64,000 nt of DNA, from sequence record ON286975; one strand, written 5' to 3'. Each line of letters begins with the position of its first letter. The stretch's first letter is position 1. Source of the DNA: Escherichia phage I29. Positions 30,851 to 59,817 of this stretch are shown here, in pieces. The position numbers and the translations under genes are program-made. Below the pieces are notes generated by a model, which was not told the DNA's origin, made no database searches, and saw only the letters and a program-made list of their open reading frames with translations.

Positions 30851-31990
30851 CATACTCTACCTGTCTGATCAATTTCCCCAACCACATCCTCCATATTTTC
30901 CCTGTCTGTACTACCCCTGCCCCGCCGTGAGTCCCGTCATATCTGGCTTTCCAGCAAATATCACACCCACAAATATCATTGCCTGAAGAGGGTTTCATCT
31001 CATAATATATGCCTTACCTGAAGAGCGCTTCATACACCACGTAATTTTTTTTTTAATTGACCCCCTCCCCGCCGCTGGAGAGGTTGGCTTTTCCCACACA
31101 GACCTGAAGAGTCAGCCAGAAATATCTGAACAGGCCCAATTCTACCACGATTTTGACCTGACCTACAGGAGTGCTGCCAGGCGGACGAAATGGGAATCAT
31201 TCTCATTCTTATAACAATTCTCAAATATCGAGGCAGTGAGGCAAATTAATAGGTGAGGCCGTTCACACAATGGCACAACATTTGCAACCTATCTTGTGGG
31301 AGTGAATGAGAATACCTATCATTGTGAGAATAGTTATCATTACGGGCAATTTAACATAATACCCATTATGCGCACCGCTGGTGATACATACAGGGAAAAT
31401 ATGGAGGATGTGGTTGGGGAAATTGATCAGACAGGTAGAGTATGCATACTCTACCTGTCTGATCAATTTCCCCAACCACATCCTCCATATTTTCCCTGTC
31501 TGTACTACCCCTGCCCCGCCGTGAGTCCCGTCATATCTGGCTTTCCAGCAAATATCACACCCACAAATATCATTGCCTGAAGAGGGTTTCATCTCATAAT
31601 ATATGCCTTACCTGAAGAGCGCTTCATACACCACGTAATTTTTTTTTTAATTGACCCCCTCCCCGCCGCTGGAGAGGTTGGCTTTTCCCACACAGACCTG
31701 AAGAGTCAGCCAGAAATATCTGAACAGGCCCAATTCTACCACGATTTTGACCTGACCTACAGGAGTGCTGCCAGGCGGACGAAATGGGAATCATTCTCAT
31801 TCTTATAACAATTCTCAAATATCGAGGCAGTGAGGCAAATTAATAGGTGAGGCCGTTCACACAATGGCACAACATTTGCAACCTATCTTGTGGGAGTGAA
31901 TGAGAATACCTATCATTGTGAGAATAGTTATCATTACGGGCAATTTAACATAATACCCATTATGCGCACCGCTGGTGATACATACAGGGA
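30851..31990. repeat. tandem direct repeat, 594-bp unit x 1.9 copies
   Basis: 30851-31444 is repeated at 31445-31990 with identical sequence where compared; unit contains three CCTGAAGAG motifs and a T10 run. Confidence 0.9.
31393..31496. repeat. perfect 104-bp palindrome at the tandem-repeat junction
   Basis: gggaaaatatggaggatgtggttggggaaattgatcagacaggtagagtatg is immediately followed by its exact reverse complement. Confidence 0.9.
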
Positions 31991-33280: not shown

Positions 33281-33308
33281 CAAAAAGAAAGGGGCCTTTA
33301 AGCCCCTT
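33281..33308. terminator. bidirectional terminator-like hairpin
   Basis: ggggc-ctttaa-gcccc flanked by an A-run upstream and T-rich downstream; just 3' of minus gene 33327-33746. Confidence 0.5.
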
Positions 33309-33326
33309 GATAATTCAGTTAAGAAA

Positions 33327-33746: not shown

Positions 33747-33890
33747 GGTGTTTTTACCTCTTAGTTAATTTTCTTACAACTTCCCTTCAAAAAAGAATAT
33801 AGCAAAACTGCCGATCCCTGTCAACCAAGGATGGCATAATTTTTATGTGATCAAGGGGCTTTATTGCCCCTGACCATGTAACTTGTTGTA

Positions 33891-34489: not shown

Positions 34490-34703
34490 GGCGTTTTCCT
34501 CTCTTCTGGTTGTGTGGGCACTTTTGCCCTTTCAAGATAAATGTTACCTCACCCCATGGCAGATGTCAACGGTTTTTATAGTTCTTATATGACAGGCAGG
34601 CCCGGTGATTGTCTCCCCCTGTTCCCAAGTGCCGCCCGTTTAATAAGAATAGCAAAAGGGGCCGAACAAGTCAACCCCAAAATCAGTACCAAAACACTTT
34701 TAT

Positions 34704-35015
34704 TTATACGGTCCGATCATTGGCCTTTGTCCAGGACCTGGCGATCCGTTTCCCGGTCACCTGGAACGGAGGCTGCATTGTGTGTAATGAGTCCAGCGTA
34801 AGGGAGGACCGTTTACGGCGTATCTTCAGGATCGCTAACGTATTGTCCATCTCACGGCCAGGTCCTGGGCGGTATGGTGTGCCTCCAGCGTTAAGGTTGA
34901 TGATCTCATGTATTGAGATCCGGCGTTGTTTTGCTTCCGCATCTTTGAAGATAGCCAGCGGAGGCGCTATGCGTTGCCGATACCAATCTAAAACGGTTGG
35001 CGTAATAGCGATCAT
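34704..35015 (-). CDS. hypothetical protein
   Basis: 103 aa; ATGA coupling with upstream minus ORF. Confidence 0.4.
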   Translation of the reverse strand: MIAITPTVLDWYRQRIAPPLAIFKDAEAKQRRISIHEIINLNAGGTPYRPGPGREMDNTLAILKIRRKRSSLTLDSLHTMQPPFQVTGKRIARSWTKANDRTV

Positions 35016-35203
35016 ATTTTACCCCCTATGTAGTCCGGTCGGTTTTTCTCTGTCATGCGCTTTAGCAATTCTTGAATAATCCCTATTGCGGTCAATGTCT
35101 CATCTTCACGCTTTGAGTCAACATAATCAGGATCGTTTATAACTTTTGTCTGATTATGATATCTCAATACCGCCAACACTTTTACAGCTTCATCAGTGGT
35201 CAT
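35012..35203 (-). CDS. hypothetical protein
   Basis: AGGTG RBS; 63 aa. Confidence 0.45.
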   Translation of the reverse strand: MTTDEAVKVLAVLRYHNQTKVINDPDYVDSKREDETLTAIGIIQELLKRMTEKNRPDYIGGKI

Positions 35204-35211
35204 TATCGCAC

Positions 35212-35346
35212 CTAAAACAGTAAGTTAATATATAACACCAGATCGCTGACCACTAGAACAGCACGGATCAGCACATACCTAACCATAAGGGGAAAGAGCG
35301 CCAATATTGCCACCACAATCCCAAAGGTGATGATTATCTTTCTCAT
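35212..35346 (-). CDS. small hydrophobic peptide, 44 aa
   Basis: MRKIIITFGIVVAILALFPLMVRYVLIRAVLVVSDLVLYINLLF; ATG 2 nt after upstream stop. Confidence 0.35.
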   Translation of the reverse strand: MRKIIITFGIVVAILALFPLMVRYVLIRAVLVVSDLVLYINLLF

Positions 35347-35348
35347 GG

Positions 35349-35633
35349 TTAACGGTTTACGTAAGCTTTACCGTTTACGGTGATGGGCAAATCTTCCAGG
35401 TCTGGATCTTCCTTAAGGTCGCGAGCAAGCTCACCGCACCGGACACCCTCGAATCCGTAGTACTCTGTTGTGCCGTCCTTAAAAGTTTTAGCGGCAAGGC
35501 ATAAGCGATAAGTAACCCCGATTCGATTGACGGCATGAATATCCGTTAGATTAACCTCTTTTGCCAGCTCTTTAGCCATTACAGGCGCATTAAGTCCAAC
35601 AACCAGGGCAACCACTGCGATCATCTTTTTCAT
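35349..35633 (-). CDS. secreted (signal-peptide) small protein
   Basis: N-terminal MKKMIAVVALVVGLNAPVMA|KE signal peptide, no lipobox; 94 aa. Confidence 0.5.
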   Translation of the reverse strand: MKKMIAVVALVVGLNAPVMAKELAKEVNLTDIHAVNRIGVTYRLCLAAKTFKDGTTEYYGFEGVRCGELARDLKEDPDLEDLPITVNGKAYVNR

Positions 35634-35724
35634 TGTGTCTATCCTCTTTCTGCTACGTTTAAGGCGGCGGTAACCGTCTGTTTATGCCTTGTTGGTTAAT
35701 TTTCGGGTATCGGTATAAATTAAA

Positions 35725-35940
35725 CTATGCTGTACGCTCAACTATAACAACGGTTTGAGGGATCTCACCTTCCACCACTATCAAGGCTTTTTTCTGCGTG
35801 ATGGATATCTTTACCCGTTGCAGCGTGGCGGTGAAGTCTTTCATTTCGTCACGTGGTGTTTTAGTGCAATACCAGATCTCAGGCTTGCCGATCTGCAAGT
35901 TGCGTAAAAATTCTGTTTTGCCTGTTTTGTTAGTGATCAT
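35725..35940 (-). CDS. hypothetical protein
   Basis: 71 aa on cluster strand. Confidence 0.45.
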   Translation of the reverse strand: MITNKTGKTEFLRNLQIGKPEIWYCTKTPRDEMKDFTATLQRVKISITQKKALIVVEGEIPQTVVIVERTA

Positions 35941-35949
35941 TTGCCAACC

Positions 35950-36054
35950 TCACCCGATACCGTTGGAAGATAAGATCACATTAGCCATGGTTGCAATCAG
36001 GCCAATACCCAGGGCAATAACCAGGATCACCGCATCAATTAATTTCTGTTTCAT
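35950..36054 (-). CDS. small hydrophobic peptide, 34 aa
   Basis: MKQKLIDAVILVIALGIGLIATMANVILSSNGIG; AGAGGAAAAC RBS. Confidence 0.35.
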   Translation of the reverse strand: MKQKLIDAVILVIALGIGLIATMANVILSSNGIG

Positions 36055-36144
36055 TTTGTTTTCCTCTTCTTGTTCCAGGTGGCGGACCATTCCACCGCCT
36101 TATGTATTATGCTTTGTAAGATGGTTGTTTGTTTTCAAACTATT

Positions 36145-36324
36145 TTAACGATAATCATCGTACGCTTTATTAACCTGGCGAATATAACATTCAAAAGCCA
36201 GATCAATAGATTTATATTCACGGATATACTCACCATAGGAAACCACATACATTTCTATAGCTTCCTCATATGCGAGGAGAATAGAATCCAAGCCTACGAT
36301 CTCAGTCTTTGCAATAATAGCCAT
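36145..36324 (-). CDS. hypothetical protein, 59 aa
   Basis: ATG 36324 after AAGAGGATAAAAATC; below track cutoff. Confidence 0.4.
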   Translation of the reverse strand: MAIIAKTEIVGLDSILLAYEEAIEMYVVSYGEYIREYKSIDLAFECYIRQVNKAYDDYR

Positions 36325-36395
36325 GATTTTTATCCTCTTTGTGGTTGGTGGGGCTTGCCCCTTTGATTTATATACTACAGTCTTATATGGTCATG

Positions 36396-36629
36396 TCAAC
36401 TATTTTCAAAAAATTTTTCTGCTGTGATATTTTTCCCGGTAGGATTGGCTACTTTTAAAATTCTATCATGCACCGGACGCCCGAAAGAATAAGATCCGTA
36501 TACAGTAAACCAATAATCGCCGTCAGGTTGTACTATTACCGCCGCATATGGTACGCCTTTTTCGTTTTTGCTGACAAAATAGATCACATTGCCATTAATA
36601 GCCTCAGCGCGTTTAATTTGTTCCATCAT
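36396..36629 (-). CDS. hypothetical protein
   Basis: 77 aa; AGAGAGG RBS. Confidence 0.5.
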   Translation of the reverse strand: MMEQIKRAEAINGNVIYFVSKNEKGVPYAAVIVQPDGDYWFTVYGSYSFGRPVHDRILKVANPTGKNITAEKFFENS

Positions 36630-36683
36630 GATGATTTACCTCTCTTTATTTTCATAATTGGGGCCTTTTCGGCCCCGCCAGGT

Positions 36684-36968
36684 TTATTTATTGATAGCGT
36701 GCAGCGGGAAAGGTACGCCAGGTTGATAGATAACTTTTACAACCTCATCAGGGCAAAAGAAATTGCAGAATTCACCCTGATAAGCCTCATCCTCTTTTAA
36801 TTCTTCATCAACATACTGGAAAAAGTAGTCAATGCTTGGATAATCCTGACCGGGATTATATTCAACCATGGTTAATAACAATTCTTGATCATTCCGTACG
36901 ATATGCATACCAGCTTTTAAGTATTTGGCTTCCATTTCTACTACATCGCCAACGGTAACAATAGCCAT
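36684..36968 (-). CDS. acidic hypothetical protein
   Basis: 94 aa; AGGAG RBS. Confidence 0.5.
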   Translation of the reverse strand: MAIVTVGDVVEMEAKYLKAGMHIVRNDQELLLTMVEYNPGQDYPSIDYFFQYVDEELKEDEAYQGEFCNFFCPDEVVKVIYQPGVPFPLHAINK

Positions 36969-37173
36969 GGTTTTAACTCCTATCTATCCGGTTAATGATT
37001 GGAGGCCTCACCGCCCCCGACACCCTTTATTATCCATATTGTAGGACTTGATGCAAGTACTTCTTTAAAAATTTTTTAAGCGCCTTGGGGGCCGCTGTAA
37101 CGCCAAAATAATAAAGGCTATGCAACCGCATAGCCTTTATGTGATTATATCGCTGCAGGCCCTGCCAGGGGCC

Positions 37174-37524
37174 TTATTTTGCATTCTTTCCTATATTGCC
37201 GCTACGGTACCAGCGTTTACGGTGAAAATGGTAATAATCACCATCGGCATTAAACATCAGATGATTTTCAATAACCAGCTTACGAAGGTGGGCCGGATCT
37301 TGTTCCATTCTTGCCAGATTCTGGCGGCTGTTACGTAAGCGGATAAATTCCATATTCAGGCCGTTGATTGCAGCATGGATGTCAAAGTAACCACCTTTGA
37401 GACGTTCACGCATGGCGTTAAGCTCAACACAATATACAGATTTCTCACAAATCAAGGTATTAGCCAGGGCGCGGACCTGGGCAAGGGGGTTAAGCTCATT
37501 AAGGTAATATAGTTTTACTTTCAT
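37174..37524 (-). CDS. hypothetical protein
   Basis: 116 aa, basic. Confidence 0.5.
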   Translation of the reverse strand: MKVKLYYLNELNPLAQVRALANTLICEKSVYCVELNAMRERLKGGYFDIHAAINGLNMEFIRLRNSRQNLARMEQDPAHLRKLVIENHLMFNADGDYYHFHRKRWYRSGNIGKNAK

Positions 37525-37541
37525 AAAATCACCTGCTGAAA

Positions 37542-37841
37542 TTAGTTTGAGAAAACATCGTTCACAATAGCGATCACAATGCCGCCCACCTTGTCACGGT
37601 CAACAATGCACAAATCACCATAGATCATGTGGTAGTCTGGATGATCTTTGACGGAATAGTCGATAAGTGTTTTCTTGTCATCCAGCTTACTAACTTCCAT
37701 TCTCATAACGATATGAGAATCATCAAAGGCATTATTCCGAAAAGTCATAACCTGACCGCCAGGGCACCCGGTGATTTCCACCTCCACGCCGTCTACGATC
37801 TGACCATCAAAGAAATAAAGATTATTAGCCTGGATAAACAT
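37542..37841 (-). CDS. hypothetical protein
   Basis: Start placed at second ATG (37841) 8 nt after AAAGGAG; track ORF begins GTG 37862. Confidence 0.5.
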   Translation of the reverse strand: MFIQANNLYFFDGQIVDGVEVEITGCPGGQVMTFRNNAFDDSHIVMRMEVSKLDDKKTLIDYSVKDHPDYHMIYGDLCIVDRDKVGGIVIAIVNDVFSN

Positions 37842-37885
37842 GATCATTACTCCTTTTTGCACTGATTATTTTAACAGGGTTTAAA

Positions 37886-37929
37886 TTTACTTTATTGATG
37901 GCCCTGGAGTCAAGGCCATCTAAAAATAA
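37886..37929 (-). repeat. 45-bp promoter/stem-loop repeat element, copy 1 (PeSL-like)
   Basis: On minus strand: TTATTTTTA-GATGGCC-TTGACTCCAG-GGCCATC-AATAAAGTAAAC; hairpin with TTGACT in the loop, TAAATT -10 about 18 bp downstream. Confidence 0.6.
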
Positions 37930-37932
37930 ATT

Positions 37933-38133
37933 TTACAGGCCTACAATCTCTTTAATTCGTTTTACTGCTGCCTCAGCGCCTTGAGGGTAAAAATTATGGT
38001 AACCAATCACGCGAGTGATACTAATCGCCGTTTGATGATCTTCATAATCACCTTTAAAGATTTCTTGACCGTCAATCAGCACGGCAATTTTTTCTTCTTT
38101 TTTGAAGTTAATAACGCGGATATTGTTGCTCAT
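37933..38133 (-). CDS. hypothetical protein
   Basis: 66 aa; AAAGGAGAAAC RBS. Confidence 0.45.
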   Translation of the reverse strand: MSNNIRVINFKKEEKIAVLIDGQEIFKGDYEDHQTAISITRVIGYHNFYPQGAEAAVKRIKEIVGL

Positions 38134-38221
38134 TTTGTTTCTCCTTTTGGAACTTTGTCTATGCGGTGGGGAGTGTCTCCCCGTTGATTGATATTATCCA
38201 TATTCTGGATCGGATTGCAAC

Positions 38222-38259
38222 ACTCAGGGAGAAAAAATTTGAAAAGTTAGGCCCCAGGG
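38222..38259 (-). terminator. intrinsic terminator (minus strand)
   Basis: ggcccc-agggatc-ggggcc hairpin followed on the minus strand by a T-rich tract. Confidence 0.5.
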
Positions 38260-38611
38260 ATCGGGGCCGTTATCAGTTACTTACAGCGATAAAATACATC
38301 CCTACGCCTAACAATATTTCAAGGGCGATGATCTCAAGCCATACCATAACACGGCGCGCCTTATCGGTGCGGGGCTTATCCTTGGGTGTCATCGTCTCCC
38401 CCTTTCCTCCTGTTAGCAGTGACGTGGTTTGCAATGGCCCCCAGGAGTATTATCACCACGCACATTACAAGAAAAATTATCTCTGTCGTTGTTCGATCCA
38501 TTGTTATAAAATTCCTTAAGATCAGGCCTGAAAATAAAGCTTTCGTTATTGAATCCATCCCGCCAGGCGGCTGGCTTCAAATCTTCACTAAAGGGGTTAA
38601 TTAACGTGGCA

Positions 38612-38983
38612 TTATTTAAACGGCTGGTCCACATATTTTCTATTCCTCTCAAATAGGCGATCCGCCTCAGTTAAACAAATCTCATGGGCGTGATCTCTGG
38701 TTTTAGCTTCATCGAAAACCTGTTGTGCAAGGCTGCAACGTAGGGAGACTGGAAGATCGCTGTAGTAGGCGTTGACAAATGTTTGAGCGTCGTACAGGTC
38801 TGAAAATACTTTACCCTTTCTATTATTCCCCTTGTCAACAATTGCAAGGATAACCAATACAATAGTTGCAACCACTCCCAGGAAAATAGATATAACAAAC
38901 CATAGAAAAGCGGATCTACCCATCTTGCCAGCGATCCAGGCGTTGAACAAGGCAACTACTACAGCCAAAATAATAAATTCCAT
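38612..38983 (-). CDS. membrane protein (two predicted TM helices)
   Basis: Start at MEFIILAVVVALFNAWIAG after AAAGAGG; second hydrophobic segment FLWFVISIFLGVVATIVLVILAIV. Confidence 0.5.
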   Translation of the reverse strand: MEFIILAVVVALFNAWIAGKMGRSAFLWFVISIFLGVVATIVLVILAIVDKGNNRKGKVFSDLYDAQTFVNAYYSDLPVSLRCSLAQQVFDEAKTRDHAHEICLTEADRLFERNRKYVDQPFK

Positions 38984-39008
38984 TCTATGTACCTCTTTTG
39001 CAGTTCTG

Positions 39009-39038
39009 TTTAACAATAAGGCGGCAAATATGCCGCCT
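39009..39038 (-). terminator. intrinsic terminator (minus strand)
   Basis: ggcggca-aata-tgccgcc hairpin followed on the minus strand by TTATTGTT. Confidence 0.55.
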
Positions 39039-39047
39039 GTTACCTGA

Positions 39048-39428
39048 TTAAAAATTATCGCCGTAAATCTTTCCGCTTTCTGCCCACACCACCACGCGGG
39101 GCATGTTATCCCATACGTCTTGTTTTAGATTTAACGCGTGCAATTCTTCTGTGGTGCTCATACCAGGCACGGGCTGATTGTATACTGCAAAACGACCACC
39201 TGCATAATCATAAGCTAAAGTCAAATCGCACTGAATCATTTTCTTGATCATGGCGTTAAGCATAGCGTTAGCCGCGTACTGGTCACGTTTTAAAGGCAAC
39301 TCTTTGATTAGTTTGCGATAGTTTTCGATATGGTCGCACACTGTTTCACGTGGAAGATCTTTCATATCTTCACGGAATGTAACCAGGTTAAACATAACGG
39401 TGTCAATAGCTTTAGTAGTGTTTTTCAT
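39048..39428 (-). CDS. hypothetical protein
   Basis: 126 aa; AGAGGAAAAC RBS. Confidence 0.5.
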   Translation of the reverse strand: MKNTTKAIDTVMFNLVTFREDMKDLPRETVCDHIENYRKLIKELPLKRDQYAANAMLNAMIKKMIQCDLTLAYDYAGGRFAVYNQPVPGMSTTEELHALNLKQDVWDNMPRVVVWAESGKIYGDNF

Positions 39429-39519
39429 GATGTTTTCCTCTTTGTTTTGTGTGGGGGCAAGTCATCTCGCCCCCTTAAGTTTTAATATAGCAGGTTTTTA
39501 GATTATTGCAACACTTTAT

Positions 39520-40143
39520 TTATGAAAAACTCATCTCTCCATATTCATCCACATCAAACCGCCAATCATTGGCTTCAATAAGGCCGATCAAGTTTTCGGT
39601 AGTAAACTGTTCAAGATAGGCCTCCTCCAGGTCTACATAAACCTTGCGGGATAGCTCCCGTACCGTCTCGGTGATCAGCTCTTCCAGATCTTCCACTTTA
39701 TTTTCTTGTTTTGCGGTCAGATCTAGCCAGGTAGTATCAATATATCCGCTTACAGTGTTTTCATGGCTGTAATGGCTGTACTTGTCGCGTTCAACACTGG
39801 CTGATAGTTCGCCATCGTGCATTGTGCCGAACAAGTGACGAATTGATCGGAACTTGGTCAGGGCCTTGACTTTACGCAAGAATTTCTCTAAGTCTACATT
39901 TTCAGCACTAATTGACGCGCCATCGCCTTGACACCAAAAGCCGGACCAATGTACATCGGTATCTTCAAGGCCGTACTCTGGAAAAACTTGTTCTTTATAA
40001 TATTCAATTACACTTTCTGCGAAAAAATCCTCTCCGCTGTGTTCTTCTCTTTCGCGGACCATTTCAATAGCTTTTTCTTTTTGTTCGTCGGTCAGCACGT
40101 CGAAAGATAAATTGCAACCTGTGGTAATGTTAACGGTAGTCAT
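39520..40143 (-). CDS. acidic hypothetical protein
   Basis: 207 aa; contains HWSGFWCQGDGASI; no confident family assignment. Confidence 0.5.
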   Translation of the reverse strand: MTTVNITTGCNLSFDVLTDEQKEKAIEMVREREEHSGEDFFAESVIEYYKEQVFPEYGLEDTDVHWSGFWCQGDGASISAENVDLEKFLRKVKALTKFRSIRHLFGTMHDGELSASVERDKYSHYSHENTVSGYIDTTWLDLTAKQENKVEDLEELITETVRELSRKVYVDLEEAYLEQFTTENLIGLIEANDWRFDVDEYGEMSFS

Positions 40144-40199
40144 GATATTTTCTCCTATTTTCTTTGTTAGTGGCGGGAAGTTTTCTCGCCTGTGTGTTT

Positions 40200-40228
40200 A
40201 AGTATACTTATTGAGGCTTACTTGTCAA
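40200..40228 (-). promoter_or_regulatory. sigma70-type promoter (minus strand)
   Basis: Minus strand TTGACA-17-ATACTT, followed by 5'-UTR hairpin ggcgagaaaacttcccgcc. Confidence 0.5.
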
Positions 40229-40478
40229 CACTATTTTTTAAATTATTGTGGCGTAAAATGTTTAGAATCTCTTCAACGTCATCAACACGGCGGCAATTTT
40301 TAAACGCTACCAATTGCCCCATGATTTTAATCACTGGGCGGCCTTGCCAGTGCCCCTGGAGAAAGCGCGCCTTGACTTTATCGGTGGAACTATCACGCCA
40401 CCAAATGGCCTTGTTGTTGCAGTAGTAAAAATTATTCAGGACAACATCAACTTTATCAAAATTTTTTAATTTACGCAT
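40218..40478 (-). CDS. hypothetical protein
   Basis: 86 aa; AAAGGAGTAAAC RBS. Confidence 0.45.
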   Translation of the reverse strand: MRKLKNFDKVDVVLNNFYYCNNKAIWWRDSSTDKVKARFLQGHWQGRPVIKIMGQLVAFKNCRRVDDVEEILNILRHNNLKNSVDK

Positions 40479-40510
40479 GGCGTTTACTCCTTTCTCTCTT
40501 TGATGTGGTT

Positions 40511-40538
40511 AGTATAGCTAACCTGTTTAAGATGTCAA
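40511..40538 (-). promoter_or_regulatory. sigma70-type promoter (minus strand)
   Basis: Minus strand TTGACA-16-TATACT upstream of gene 40218-40478. Confidence 0.55.
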
Positions 40539-40685
40539 GCTTTAAATAAAATCACTGTCAATGATATTTTTAACGCCATAAAACGGCCCTAAGCGATGTT
40601 TTCAGGTTAAAGGGGGGCGATTGCATAGGTGGGGCCTTTTTGGCGCTTACAGGGCCAACCAGGGGCGCTATTCGTAGGATAGAAA

Positions 40686-40711
40686 TAAAAAGCCCCGCAC
40701 AATGGCGGGGC
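40686..40711 (-). terminator. intrinsic terminator (minus strand)
   Basis: gccccgc-acaatg-gcggggc followed on the minus strand by TTTTTA. Confidence 0.6.
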
Positions 40712-40719
40712 GTTGGTTG

Positions 40720-40917
40720 TTATTTGTCTTTATGGCGGTATCGTTCTGCCTGTCGTTCACGTTCCAAAAGTAGGCCAGGCAATTTACGATCATAATGATT
40801 CCGCCAGATCTTCCCAAATCTTTTTGGCTTATTCAGTTTATTGTTGCGCTGGCGACGTTCCGGCAACTCTTCGGAATCATGAGGGCGCTTTACAATTTTT
40901 TCGAAATTAATTTTCAT
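40720..40917 (-). CDS. small basic protein
   Basis: Start MKINFEKIV after AAGGGGGG; Arg/Lys-rich. Confidence 0.45.
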   Translation of the reverse strand: MKINFEKIVKRPHDSEELPERRQRNNKLNKPKRFGKIWRNHYDRKLPGLLLERERQAERYRHKDK

Positions 40918-41278
40918 AACTTCCCCCCTTACTGATCTCAATATTTGCCTGAATCGCCCGGATACGCCGTTTTATAACCTCCTGATCCTTGCAATCATAT
41001 CCCCAAAAGTCTACGATTTTTGCGCCTCCAGCCTTTAGGCGGTATAGTGTTTCTTGCATCTTGTAGGCCGGGATCGGTCGCGGTGTTACCTGGTCGCCCT
41101 TCTCATTCTTGTACTTGATAATGTAGTCTTCATTGTCGTTGAATACCCAAAATGGGTATTCTGTGAGCGCGTTGCTCTCTTTTTCGTTTTTAGATTGGAT
41201 CTTGTTTACAATTAAAGCCGTAGCAATAGCGCCAATAATAAAACTTGCCCCACTGATCATGTTACTTTCTCCTTTCAT
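40907..41278 (-). CDS. membrane-anchored hypothetical protein
   Basis: N-terminal hydrophobic helix ISGASFIIGAIATALIV; 123 aa. Confidence 0.45.
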   Translation of the reverse strand: MKGESNMISGASFIIGAIATALIVNKIQSKNEKESNALTEYPFWVFNDNEDYIIKYKNEKGDQVTPRPIPAYKMQETLYRLKAGGAKIVDFWGYDCKDQEVIKRRIRAIQANIEISKGGSYEN

Positions 41279-41336
41279 TGTATTGATAAACTATCTTTAT
41301 AGATGGCCCTGCTACCAGGACCACCGAAAAAACAGT

Positions 41337-41582
41337 TTATTTGACGATACCGACAAAACAGATCCCGCCTTCCCCTATATAGGCAATATCGGTAATTTTA
41401 TAATTTGTCAAGATCCGCGTGTTCAGCTCATTAATAAAATCTGTCATCGCGTTGGTGTAGTTGTCTTCCGTGTCTAAGGCATAATCCCAGGTGTAAACCT
41501 TTTTACGTCCGAAGCCTTTTACCATGATACGGGCGCTTTTGGTGTTGGTAGGGGCATAATATTTGGTGATTAGTGCTGCCAT
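41337..41582 (-). CDS. hypothetical protein
   Basis: 81 aa; AGGAG RBS; downstream of 45-bp element copy 2. Confidence 0.45.
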   Translation of the reverse strand: MAALITKYYAPTNTKSARIMVKGFGRKKVYTWDYALDTEDNYTNAMTDFINELNTRILTNYKITDIAYIGEGGICFVGIVK

Positions 41583-41625
41583 GGTTTTAACTCCTATGCA
41601 TTAGTTCAGTGTTAACAGTATAAAG

Positions 41626-41669
41626 TTTACTTTATTGATGGCCCTGGAGTCAAGGCCATCTAAAAATAA
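41626..41669 (-). repeat. 45-bp promoter/stem-loop repeat element, copy 2
   Basis: Near-identical to 37886-37929; -10 TAAACT. Confidence 0.6.
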
Positions 41670-41671
41670 TC

Positions 41672-42022
41672 TTACTCGTTTTCTTCCAGCTCCGCAAGCT
41701 CTTCTTTTGCTTCTTCCAACTCTGTCTGTAATTCCTGGTATTCTTCATCGTCCTCAATATCCAGGCTGTCGATGTAGTCGCTAAATCCGCAGCGGTAAGC
41801 GATAGGATCTAGCTCTTTGAGGATACGCGACGGAAGAAAAGAAATGTTTCCGATCATAATTTCGCCGTAGATCTCGTCTAACCATTCATCATAGTTTTCG
41901 TCGTACTTGTCCTCGTCGATTTCAAAGTTATCGATCTTGTCTTCAAGTTCTGCAATCTGTTTTTTCAGGGCGGCGATCTGCAGGGCTTTTTCTTCGGCGG
42001 TCATAGTGATGGAAGTATTCAT
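41672..42022 (-). CDS. highly acidic coiled-coil protein
   Basis: 116 aa, about one-third Asp/Glu (EDKIDNFEIDEDKYDENYDEWLDEIY...EDDEEYQELQTELEEAKEE). Confidence 0.5.
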   Translation of the reverse strand: MNTSITMTAEEKALQIAALKKQIAELEDKIDNFEIDEDKYDENYDEWLDEIYGEIMIGNISFLPSRILKELDPIAYRCGFSDYIDSLDIEDDEEYQELQTELEEAKEELAELEENE

Positions 42023-42074
42023 AATGTTTTCTCCTTTTGGTGTTCTGGGAAGTTTTCCCGTTTATGTGCTTAGT

Positions 42075-42102
42075 ATTATACTGATTTAAGTTAGCTTGTC
42101 AA
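42075..42102 (-). promoter_or_regulatory. sigma70-type promoter (minus strand)
   Basis: Minus strand TTGACA-16-TATAAT, then 5'-UTR hairpin gggaaaacttccc. Confidence 0.55.
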
Positions 42103-42222
42103 TTAAAAGTTTAAGAAAAATTTTGCGAAATCATTGGCGCTACTCATCAACATTTGCGCCAGGATGTAACCAATGATGCAAACGATAATAGTTACCTTTG
42201 TGTGCTGGCGTGTAGTGCTCAT
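42103..42222 (-). CDS. small hydrophobic peptide, 39 aa
   Basis: MSTTRQHTKVTIIVCIIGYILAQMLMSSANDFAKFFLNF; GGAGG RBS; downstream of 45-bp element copy 3. Confidence 0.4.
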   Translation of the reverse strand: MSTTRQHTKVTIIVCIIGYILAQMLMSSANDFAKFFLNF

Positions 42223-42251
42223 CTTCAAGCCTCCTTTTTAACTGGGATTAG

Positions 42252-42295
42252 TTTACTTTACTGATGGCCCTGGAGTCAAGGCCATCTAAAAATAA
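42252..42295 (-). repeat. 45-bp promoter/stem-loop repeat element, copy 3
   Basis: GATGGCC-TTGACTCCAG-GGCCATC with -10 TAAACT; one substitution vs other copies. Confidence 0.6.
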
Positions 42296-42297
42296 AC

Positions 42298-42693
42298 TCA
42301 ATAAGTTTTTAGTACTTTCCCGTCCAATCTGTCAAGCTGGATCTCGATAGCTGCAGAAAACCTATTGTAAACCACATCGCCCAAGGAGTCCAGCCAATCT
42401 ATGACGTTATACACCTGCTCTTTATTCTTGCAAGTCCGGATCCGTTTCATTACGTAAGACGGATCAATATTAGCGCTCTCGTTGTTGTGGTCATGCTCCT
42501 GGCCTGCTGCATTAGTTATAGATTTTACAACCACCTGAAAAGGCTTTAAGGTGCCTTTTGCGTTCATCTCACGCGCTTTTGCGGCGCGGTTGTTATATGT
42601 TACACAACGGCGGCAAATGTTGACCAAATGCATGTCAATAATTTTTTCATCGTTTGCCAGTTCGTTCATGATGCGGCGTACGTTCTTATTCAT
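42298..42693 (-). CDS. hypothetical protein
   Basis: 131 aa; AAGGAAAAAGATC RBS. Confidence 0.5.
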   Translation of the reverse strand: MNKNVRRIMNELANDEKIIDMHLVNICRRCVTYNNRAAKAREMNAKGTLKPFQVVVKSITNAAGQEHDHNNESANIDPSYVMKRIRTCKNKEQVYNVIDWLDSLGDVVYNRFSAAIEIQLDRLDGKVLKTY

Positions 42694-42712
42694 GATCTTT
42701 TTCCTTTGTGTT

Positions 42713-42741: not shown

Positions 42742-42769
42742 AGTTTACTTGAATTTTGCAGCGTGTCAA
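42742..42769 (-). promoter_or_regulatory. sigma70-type promoter (minus strand)
   Basis: Minus strand TTGACA-16-TAAACT. Confidence 0.5.
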
Positions 42770-44072: not shown

Positions 44073-44169
44073 AGAACTCCTCGCATTTAATAAATTTAAT
44101 TAGCGTGCTAATTACCCTCCGTAACAATTTCCTATAAAACAGTATCCCATAAAATATTCCCATATAGAA

Positions 44170-44350
44170 ATTTTAAAAATCCATTTCTGAAAACGAAAAA
44201 TCGATTTCGTTCCCAAAAATTTCAGGTCGAGCTCCGGAACGATTTCCAGAAAATCCGATTCAGAAAACGAAAAACAGATCGAGTACTGAGAAATTTATCG
44301 AGAAAAATTTTCAGAAAATTCAATCTTTGAAACGAAAAACAGATCGAGTA
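44170..44350. repeat. degenerate tandem repeats (about 3 copies, 65-75 bp period)
   Basis: Cores GAAAACGAAAAA(T/C)(C/A)GAT... at 44188, 44262, 44328; copy 1 carries inverted repeat AACGAAA/TTTCGTT. Confidence 0.6.
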
Positions 44351-44596
44351 CCCGGAAAGCTGTACCGCAACCTCAAGATAGTGGTTAGACTATTACCATA
44401 AAAAGTCAAGGGTAAGTGGAGGAAGTTCTAGTAGAAGGATGTGAGCATGTGCGGGAAATCTGTAGTGGTGGTCTGGAATATGGTGCAAACGATAGGATGA
44501 GCGATTCAGCTTGTCGCGCCTACTCTGAAAAATCCATTTTAGTTTTCGATCCATTTTCTGATTTTCTAAGAATTTTAAAATATCTGGTCCGGTGAA

Positions 44597-48161: not shown

Positions 48162-48189
48162 AAAAATGCCCCACCCTTTCGGGCAGGGC
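48162..48189 (-). terminator. intrinsic terminator with GAAA loop (minus strand)
   Basis: gccctgccc-gaaa-gggtggggc then TTTTT on minus strand; same 22-mer recurs at 59796-59817. Confidence 0.6.
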
Positions 48190-59790: not shown

Positions 59791-59817
59791 AAAAAGCCCC
59801 ACCCTTTCGGGCAGGGC
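59791..59817 (-). terminator. intrinsic terminator with GAAA loop (minus strand)
   Basis: gccctgccc-gaaa-gggtggggc then TTTTT; identical to 48168-48189. Confidence 0.6.

Follow-up and report, generated by a model that had tools for sequence, protein, structure and literature searches.

The repetitive extragenic palindromic (REP) sequences and bacterial interspersed mosaic elements (BIMEs) of E. coli are repeated imperfect palindromes that fold in mRNA and are also recombination substrates; REPs lie between cistrons, stabilise the mRNA upstream of them and influence translation if located within about 15 nt of a stop codon. The early polycistronic RNA of phage T7 contains five intercistronic RNase III signals (R0.3, R0.5, R1, R1.1 and R1.3). 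Substrates of E. coli RNase III comprise approximately two helical turns (20–22 bp) of intramolecular double-stranded RNA, with coaxial stacks allowed (PMC1540722). Internal loops restrict the enzyme to one strand, leaving a protective 3' hairpin, and at least 11 bp are required from the cut to the tetraloop, the sequence of which is irrelevant (PMC1540722, PMC3867540). Promoter early stem-loop (PeSL) elements have been described in the T4-type phages RB49/phi1, PST and nt-1 (PMC2839356, PMC4122927), including a subclass in which the stem-loop overlaps the -35 (PMC2839356). Here a repeated hairpin cassette is characterized in a 64,000-nt stretch of DNA from Escherichia phage I29 (ON286975), referred to below as the window, and is compared with these systems. 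The cassettes represent a family of RNA hairpins which is real, conserved and apparently undescribed. By analogy, its members appear to resemble the T7 RNase III processing signals most closely and most probably have a post-transcriptional role in the manner of those signals.

Structure and conservation of the hairpin cassettes

The window shares 99.9% identity with Shigella phage CM1 (MK962749), an rV5-like Vequintavirus, and between 33 and 48 kb consists of a minus-strand cluster of small hypothetical genes. An initial annotation proposed that this cluster contains three near-identical copies of a 45-bp promoter/stem-loop cassette. The copies are real: an identical 24-nt core, GATGGCCTTGACTCCAGGGCCATC, is present at the three sites and exactly three times in the window, always on the minus strand (copies A, B and C; Table 1), with no occurrence expected by chance (0 of 100 shuffles). 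The flanking sequences quoted for the repeat were confirmed, with TTATTTTTA upstream and A(A/G)TAAAGTAAA(C/T) downstream of the core, as was the presence of a TTGACT hexamer spaced by 18 nt from TAAACT or TAAATT. The distance to the next small gene, given as 30–50 nt, was measured as 29–43 nt to the start codon. The dimensions of the unit required revision, however: the actual repeat is approximately 62–72 nt long, and in place of a perfect 7-bp stem the sense RNA forms a 10-bp upper stem and an A/U lower stem joined across a 2 x 3 nt internal loop.

Retrieval of copies from 15 rV5-like genomes uncovered a fourth, divergent member (copy D), overlooked in the initial annotation and located after the 81-aa gene in every one of these genomes. 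A covariance model built from 34 distinct copies identified exactly four loci in the window, with sense-strand scores of 75–87 bits, compared with 30–40 bits for the same loci read antisense and 13.7 bits for the next-best match in the window. The rest of the CM1 genome (74 kb) yielded no further cassettes with the model.

In the sense RNA the upper stem (GAUGGCCUUG/CAGGGCCAUC) is G/C-rich, includes one U.G pair among its 10 bp and is capped by a tetraloop. Below the internal loop is the lower stem of 10–11 bp (7–11 bp across the individual folds), containing another U.G pair, and the whole hairpin amounts to approximately 21 bp or about two helical turns. Sense folds of copies A–C have predicted energies of -23.5 to -26.4 kcal/mol (z -4.8 to -6.0), whereas antisense folds reach only -16.6 to -20.7 kcal/mol (z approximately -2.5). 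The corresponding values for copy D are -28.2 kcal/mol (z -7.4) and -14.6 kcal/mol; overall, antisense folds span -10 to -21 kcal/mol, and for copy D of the Murica type the antisense fold is no better than that of shuffled sequence. The stop codon of the upstream gene always falls at alignment columns 8–12, corresponding to the 5' base of the lower stem, and the 3' side of the internal loop at columns 47–49. Copy C of Gotham (L002, 1647–1690) carries a 5-nt deletion (GGGCC) by which the 3' arm of the upper stem is lost and the hexamer spacing becomes 13, representing either a natural inactivation or a sequencing error.

Among the 34 distinct copies, standard pairs occupy 96.5% of cells, against 35–55% when partners are slid, and RNAalifold independently predicts the same two-stem structure. 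Double-sided changes were observed at four pairs of the lower stem (12/58, GC<->AU; 13/57, UA<->CG; 15/55, UA<->AU/GU; 16/54, AU<->UA) and one-sided changes at four pairs of the upper stem, always via G.U (A-U to G.U, C-G to U.G, U.G to C-G and G-C to G.U). The upper-stem changes are G.U-compatible on the sense strand only, states of the G.U type outnumber those of the A.C type among the copies, and the covariation score was reached by none of 500 shuffles. Orthologue nucleotide diversity (pi), calculated from MAFFT alignments, is 0.004–0.012 for the arms of the upper stem and 0.017 for the 3' lower-stem arm, compared with 0.075–0.09 in flanking coding sequence and untranslated regions (UTRs), making the stems 10–20 times less variable than their flanks. 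The tetraloop, which contains the last positions of the '-35', is hypervariable (pi 0.23, with at least 12 loop variants). In copy D, TTGACT is changed to CTGGTA or CTGGCT, yet every change in the stems keeps RNA pairing. The conserved functional unit is thus very probably the sense-strand RNA hairpin.

Approximately 120 phage records carry the repeat, nearly always at three places per genome. An unverified record of Campylobacter phage A147 gave four places in a sequence search, and three copies of the A–C type were located there, in a stretch running to the end of the record. A metagenome scan with a 20-base pattern recovered only rV5-like contigs, with the cassettes in the same four genomic contexts, together with one chance match (L145), and therefore provided no evidence of the cassette moving to new sites. 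A loop-anchored scan of IMG/VR returned one true relative, contig L004, plus chance matches. The stem-only pattern GATGGCC-N10-GGCCATC was rejected as an IMG/VR probe as it matched more than 120 unrelated contigs, the 14-base palindrome being unspecific. No Rfam family matched at its gathering score, the best overlapping matches scoring 23 bits (E 1.4–1.8) against thresholds of 50–55. All eight proteins flanking the cassettes belong to PHROGs of unknown function; tblastn indicated that the 131-aa and 117-aa genes are genus-restricted, and the 81-aa gene has distant homologues in other phages. Since the flanking genes are uncharacterised and two of them restricted to the genus, deep covariation from other genera was unobtainable.

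The rV5 genome paper lists 33 sigma-70 promoters and 20 terminators, and the cassette sequence is absent from both lists; it is also unannotated in the rV5 and EdH4 records. Public annotations of the same sequence elsewhere conflict, a 'promoter' being assigned in Gotham (by PhagePromoter) and a 45-bp 'terminator' in Murica (copies A and D).

Promoter-like hexamers, operon context and proposed RNA processing

The hexamers of copies A–C match the promoter consensus at 9 of 12 positions with an 18-nt spacer, a level at which matches in this region are mostly due to chance (57 found, 36 expected). The canonical promoters have TTGACA or TTGCAA, a spacer of 16–17 nt and a TATAAT-like -10. In nine such promoters of the cluster, compared across 6–14 genomes, pi is 0.000 for the -35, 0.13 for the spacer and 0.065 for the -10. 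In the cassettes the '-35' has a pi of 0.093 (0.38–0.46 at its sixth position) and the 'spacer' a pi of 0.04. This pattern of constraint is the reverse of that at real promoters, indicating that the promoter letters are not what evolution preserves. Copy D scores 7/12 and no site is listed there by the promoter scan. The proposal that the element is conserved as a promoter is consequently unsupported. Most early spacers on the minus strand between 33000 and 48000 contain a consensus TTGACA-16/17-TATAAT promoter, a short G/C 5'-UTR hairpin (e.g. GGCGGGAATGTTTCCCGCC) and a Shine-Dalgarno (SD) sequence of the ACAAAGAGGA type, and the cassettes lack this usual regional layout. Judged from sequence, some promoter activity is possible but would not be the conserved function. 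The cassettes illustrate that RNA structure can, incidentally, give rise to a promoter-like match within a repeat.

An intrinsic terminator was considered and rejected: the stem runs into AAUAAAG and has a U-run before it, the sequence beyond it is A-rich on both strands with no U-tract on either, and the cassettes are missed by a scan that detects the neighbouring canonical terminators. The 'terminator' annotation of copies A and D in Murica is therefore doubtful. Each cassette is located mid-operon, with a consensus promoter upstream and no terminator between. With promoters and terminators denoted P and T, the first operon reads P(42769), 131 aa, C, 39 aa, P(42102), 116 aa, B, 81 aa, D, 117 aa, 65 aa, T(40711), and the second P(38220), 66 aa, A, 101 aa, 116 aa, T(37140). 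This mid-operon position, with no intervening terminator, suggests that the hairpins would be present in read-through early mRNA.

The T7 R sites were taken to lie at the positions of Dunn and Studier (1983), an assumption consistent with the intergenic gaps in the T7 record. When folded, the early spacers at these presumed positions show the same two-tier design, with 18–21 bp and -21 to -30 kcal/mol. In R0.5 and R1 the stop codon of the upstream gene is situated in or at the base of the hairpin, and the annotation of the R1 spacer includes promoter C, a minor promoter of E. coli. Like the cassettes, the R sites are a small family of mutually similar hairpins located between cistrons of early operons transcribed by the host polymerase. 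Each has an upper stem of approximately 10 bp with G.U pairs, a small asymmetric internal loop approximately 10 bp from the terminal loop and, beneath this, a lower stem, and the two families are similar in free energy and in the unimportance of the loop sequence. The cassettes differ in lacking the T7 internal-loop consensus UUUAU/GAU, in their nearly pure A/U lower stem and in being carried by a 137-kb myovirus rather than a podovirus. They also differ in showing gene conversion and repeat-mediated gene loss, with cleavage only proposed.

Several properties of RNase III substrates are found in the cassettes. A helix of two turns is provided by the upper 10 bp and the lower stem across the 2 x 3 loop, the variation of the tetraloop agrees with the irrelevance of the terminal loop, and the order promoter, gene, cassette, gene(s), terminator places each hairpin between cistrons that are presumably transcribed together. 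The internal loop is invariant and lies 10 bp below the tetraloop, such that a cut at least 1 nt into the loop would give at least 11 bp. If the cut fell in the 3' internal loop, position 2 of the proximal box would be A-U (G.U in copy D) or U-A, neither GC nor CG. The published in vivo rules for RNase III are a double-cleavage position matrix and are not rigorously applicable to a single-cleavage design. The compensatory changes cluster in the A/U lower stem and the geometry of the internal loop is fixed, suggesting that total helix length matters, and this favours RNase III over a simple exonuclease barrier.

On balance, then, the hairpin appears to act post-transcriptionally on mRNA processing or stability. 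The best explanation as a whole, put forward tentatively and by analogy, is that the cassettes are T7-type RNase III processing hairpins that also recombine; the assignment of the nuclease as RNase III specifically, which draws on the T7 parallel, is a shade more tentative again. In the proposed mechanism host RNA polymerase would transcribe through each cassette, and the 21-bp interrupted helix would serve as a processing signal of the T7 type. A single cut on the 3' side of the internal loop would, as in T7, separate the cistrons, so that the upstream message would terminate in the upper stem-loop, protecting its 3' end, and the downstream message would acquire a new 5' end. The TTGACT/TAAAYT hexamers of copies A–C would be incidental, or at most a weak secondary promoter. 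The near-identity of these copies over approximately 60 nt also lets the phage recombination machinery use them for gene conversion and, occasionally, for loss or gain of the intervening genes.

A number of observations weigh against RNase III processing. Next to the internal loop lies a G-C pair, a catalytic antideterminant should cleavage occur immediately beside it (PMC1540722), and the U.G pair close to the loop, similar to the T7 distal box, is C-G in copy D. When the rV5 model was applied to the T7 early region, R1, R1.1 and R0.3 ranked top, with non-significant scores of 9.8–11.9 bits (E approximately 0.9–3), so that the relationship is one of analogy and not homology. The covariation represents few independent events (the split between A–C and D, two D lineages, and A versus B/C), and gene conversion among A–C could itself hold their stems uniform. 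PhagePromoter calls copies A and B promoters in Gotham. In addition, the 13-nt sequence AAGTAAACTAATC is common to the likely promoter upstream of the 131-aa gene and the 3' half of cassette C (42240–42262), a hint that this half either originated from a promoter -10 region or also serves as one. A search of the literature on Vequintavirus and rV5-like phages found no transcript map or transcript-end data, cleavage being entirely inferred.

Recombination between copies and alternative explanations

The initial annotation also suggested that the copies act as recombination sites for gene shuffling, with gene gain and loss expected at these sites in related genomes. In one case this is borne out: the 626-bp unit extending from C to B, with its two ORFans, is missing exactly from at least three genomes, ECP26, phiWec189 and IMG/VR contig L004. 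All three carry a hybrid cassette at the junction, with the upstream flank of C and the downstream flank of B, and the junction alignments overlap by 49–61 nt, as expected for homologous exchange within the repeat. Moreover, the same non-reference tetraloop is found in different copies within one genome (ACAC in both C and B of EdH4 and JEP1; ACUU in both C and B of APCEc02 and L146; a loop common to B and A in rV5 and in L139), and such variants common to paralogous copies point to gene conversion among A–C. However, this ORFan-containing C–B unit is the only one of approximately 17 distinct indels of at least 50 bp in the cluster to be bounded by cassettes, the others ending at short microhomologies or other regulatory hairpins. 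The cassette is thus not the main shuffling device, and recombination is a side property of the hairpin family.

Two deletions of 0.5 kb and 6.2 kb are present in the early cluster of rV5_ev146 (L129; window 42211–42699 and 34611–40771), from which it follows that at least 6.6 kb of the cluster is dispensable for that isolate. Copies A and C are lost with them; these losses were considered as possible cassette-mediated events and rejected since their ends lie outside the cassettes, at microhomologies of 13–19 nt. A recurrent indel of 545–569 bp (window 33289–33325 / 33840–33871) was also observed, the segment being absent in EdH4, Gotham, WM, L004 and ev146. In EdH4, L004 and ev146 a pair of similar GGGGC...GCCCC hairpins, with an 18-nt overlap, marks its boundaries, indicating that other regulatory hairpins also serve as recombination points.

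A likeness to PeSLs had been proposed for the cassettes, and it holds for layout and recombination but not for promoter conservation, copy number or share of indels. As in PeSLs (PMC2839356), the cassette is an intergenic composite in which an upstream stop codon in an AT-rich tract is followed by a stem-loop and then by the SD/ATG of the next gene; overlap of the stem-loop with a -35-like hexamer is allowed, as are G.T(U) pairs within it, and ORFans of a plastic early region are flanked and can be removed or inserted by recombination between neighbouring copies. On a PeSL-type explanation, a sigma-70 early promoter with an UP-like T-tract would drive the small gene, and the stem-loop would attenuate or terminate upstream transcription, insulating the ORFan, with the repeat serving as a recombination linker. 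This would accommodate the 9/12 hexamers and PhagePromoter calls, the use of TAAACT as the -10 of the canonical-format promoter with which cassette C has 13 nt in common, a loop variant that turns the '-35' into TTGACA, the one cassette-bounded indel with gene conversion, and the ORFans common to the rV5 early region and RB49. It is unlikely nonetheless. The '-35' drifts where that of real promoters is invariant, the spacer is under constraint, the hairpin persists in copy D with a non-promoter sequence, and 9/12 matches are mostly chance; the promoters of PeSLs have a strong consensus and their stem-loops have been shown to terminate, whereas here the hexamers are weak, are gone in copy D and accompany a stem with no U-tract, which the real terminators nearby possess. 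The covarying A/U lower stem has no role in either a promoter or a terminator. PeSLs are also numerous and heterogeneous, are spread through hyperplastic regions and account for most indels, in contrast to four fixed sites in the same contexts in genomes and metagenomes, and the lineage of the cassette is Vequintavirinae and not T4-type. The promoter/PeSL interpretation was right in part, on recombination and layout, and probably wrong on the purpose of the element. A nuclease-independent mRNA structure, acting with no RNase III cut as a 3'-exonuclease barrier or decay insulator, or as a roadblock at the stop codon modulating termination, recycling or coupling, would draw on the same folding and conservation evidence as RNase III processing and on the constant position of the stop codon at the stem base. 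It is judged quite unlikely, since a barrier needs only the G/C upper stem, whereas the covarying lower stem and invariant 2 x 3 loop suggest a defined helix length of the kind that RNase III recognises.

The cassettes also share with REPs and BIMEs the form of repeated imperfect palindromes between operon genes that fold in mRNA, but REPs are host elements with hundreds of copies and a consensus of their own, and lack a two-turn helix, a fixed internal loop or embedded promoter-like hexamers. At the DNA level, GATGGCC-N10-GGCCATC could be an operator for a dimeric DNA-binding protein, of phage or host, over the -35, or the cassette a folded single-stranded DNA site for recombination or replication (attC-like), given the perfect 7-bp inverted repeat of A–C and its location at the edges of losable gene cassettes. 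This is highly improbable: the arms of copy D are asymmetric as a duplex (GGTGGTC versus GATGGCC) yet pair as RNA via G.U, strand asymmetry is strong, with G.U-type states in excess of A.C-type, loop and centre are hypervariable, and the 17-bp spacing of half-sites was judged awkward for a dimer. No integrase or recombinase is associated, and ordinary homologous recombination over the 49–61-nt overlap explains the indel. Strand asymmetry and copy D were likewise the grounds for rejecting an operator or cruciform. A further, speculative proposal, regarded as improbable, is that the cassette combines a translation-gated processing switch with a recombination linker. With the stop codon in the base of the two-turn helix in all four copies, a terminating ribosome would have to open the lower A/U stem, and cutting by RNase III, or by a phage factor, could then be limited to messages whose upstream cistron is untranslated. 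Translation of one early ORFan would then be coupled to the stability and expression of the next, and the same sequence of approximately 60 nt would let the phage swap the flanked ORFans by homologous recombination.

Early ORFs (open reading frames) 167, 205, 206, 209 and 210 of rV5 (DQ832317) are annotated as similar to proteins of RB49, the type phage of PeSLs, implying exchange of early ORFans between the two lineages.

Phages of the rV5-like group are common in therapeutic and biocontrol collections, and the handling of their early transcripts is so far undescribed. Should the hairpins prove to be RNase III signals, the processing of mRNA cistron by cistron, as in T7, would be extended to a large myovirus and a simple, testable handle on early gene dosage would be available. 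The cassettes would then also mark natural cut-and-paste points for engineering, which should be tolerated given that the C–B unit is dispensable in nature.

Feature coordinates and other repeats

Table 1. Hairpin cassettes and associated features of the window (positions are those of the window; fold energies are for the sense strand and internal-loop positions for the 3' side of the loop)
Feature	Position	Strand	Hairpin	Upper stem and loop	Internal loop	Upstream stop codon	Model score (bits)	Fold (kcal/mol; z)	Remarks
Cassette A	37871–37942	-	37883–37933	37897–37920 (exact core)	~37894–37896	66-aa gene, 37933–37935, at lower-stem base	84.4	-25.2; -4.8	72-nt model match
Cassette B	41611–41682	-	41623–41673	41637–41660 (exact core)	~41634–41636	116-aa gene, 41672–41674, at lower-stem base	87.1	-23.5; -5.1	
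Cassette C	42237–42308	-	42249–42299	42263–42286 (exact core)	~42260–42262	131-aa gene, 42298–42300, at lower-stem base	86.2	-26.4; -6.0	
Cassette D	41276–41347	-	41288–41338	41302–41325 (GGUGGUCCUG-GUAG-CAGGGCCAUC)	~41299–41301	81-aa gene, at hairpin base	75.5	-28.2; -7.4	Lacks TTGACT; present in all panel genomes
C-to-B unit, 626 bp	41670–42295	-							39-aa gene (42103–42222), consensus promoter (42075–42102), 116-aa gene (41672–42022) and one cassette
Likely promoter TTGACA-16-TAAACT	42742–42769	-							Feeds transcript through 131-aa gene into cassette C; -35 invariant in 13 genomes
Likely promoter TTGCAA-16-GATAAT	38193–38220	-							Feeds 66-aa gene and cassette A
Canonical intrinsic terminator, GC stem and U-tract	40692–40711	-							Ends operon holding cassettes C, B and D
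Canonical terminator-like hairpin and U-tract	37111–37140	-							Ends operon holding cassette A

Further repeats were observed in the window. A perfect 300-nt direct repeat is present at 30851–31150 and 31445–31744, the copies lying 594 nt apart, and the alignments of relatives overlap there, which suggests a duplication specific to CM1 or an assembly artefact. A 229-nt non-coding spacer at 44164–44392 contains three repeats of approximately 57 nt at a spacing of 65–74 nt (GAAAACGAAAAACAGATCGAGTAC...); from its sequence this array looks iteron-like and may represent an origin or have a regulatory role. One terminator hairpin (GCCCCACCCTTTCGGGCAGGGC) occurs twice, at 48163–48189 and 59791–59817, 11.6 kb apart. 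Finally, an identical 20-nt translation-initiation region (ATAGGAGTTAAAACCATGGC, sense) precedes the 94-aa and 81-aa genes, at 36964–36983 and 41578–41597 respectively.

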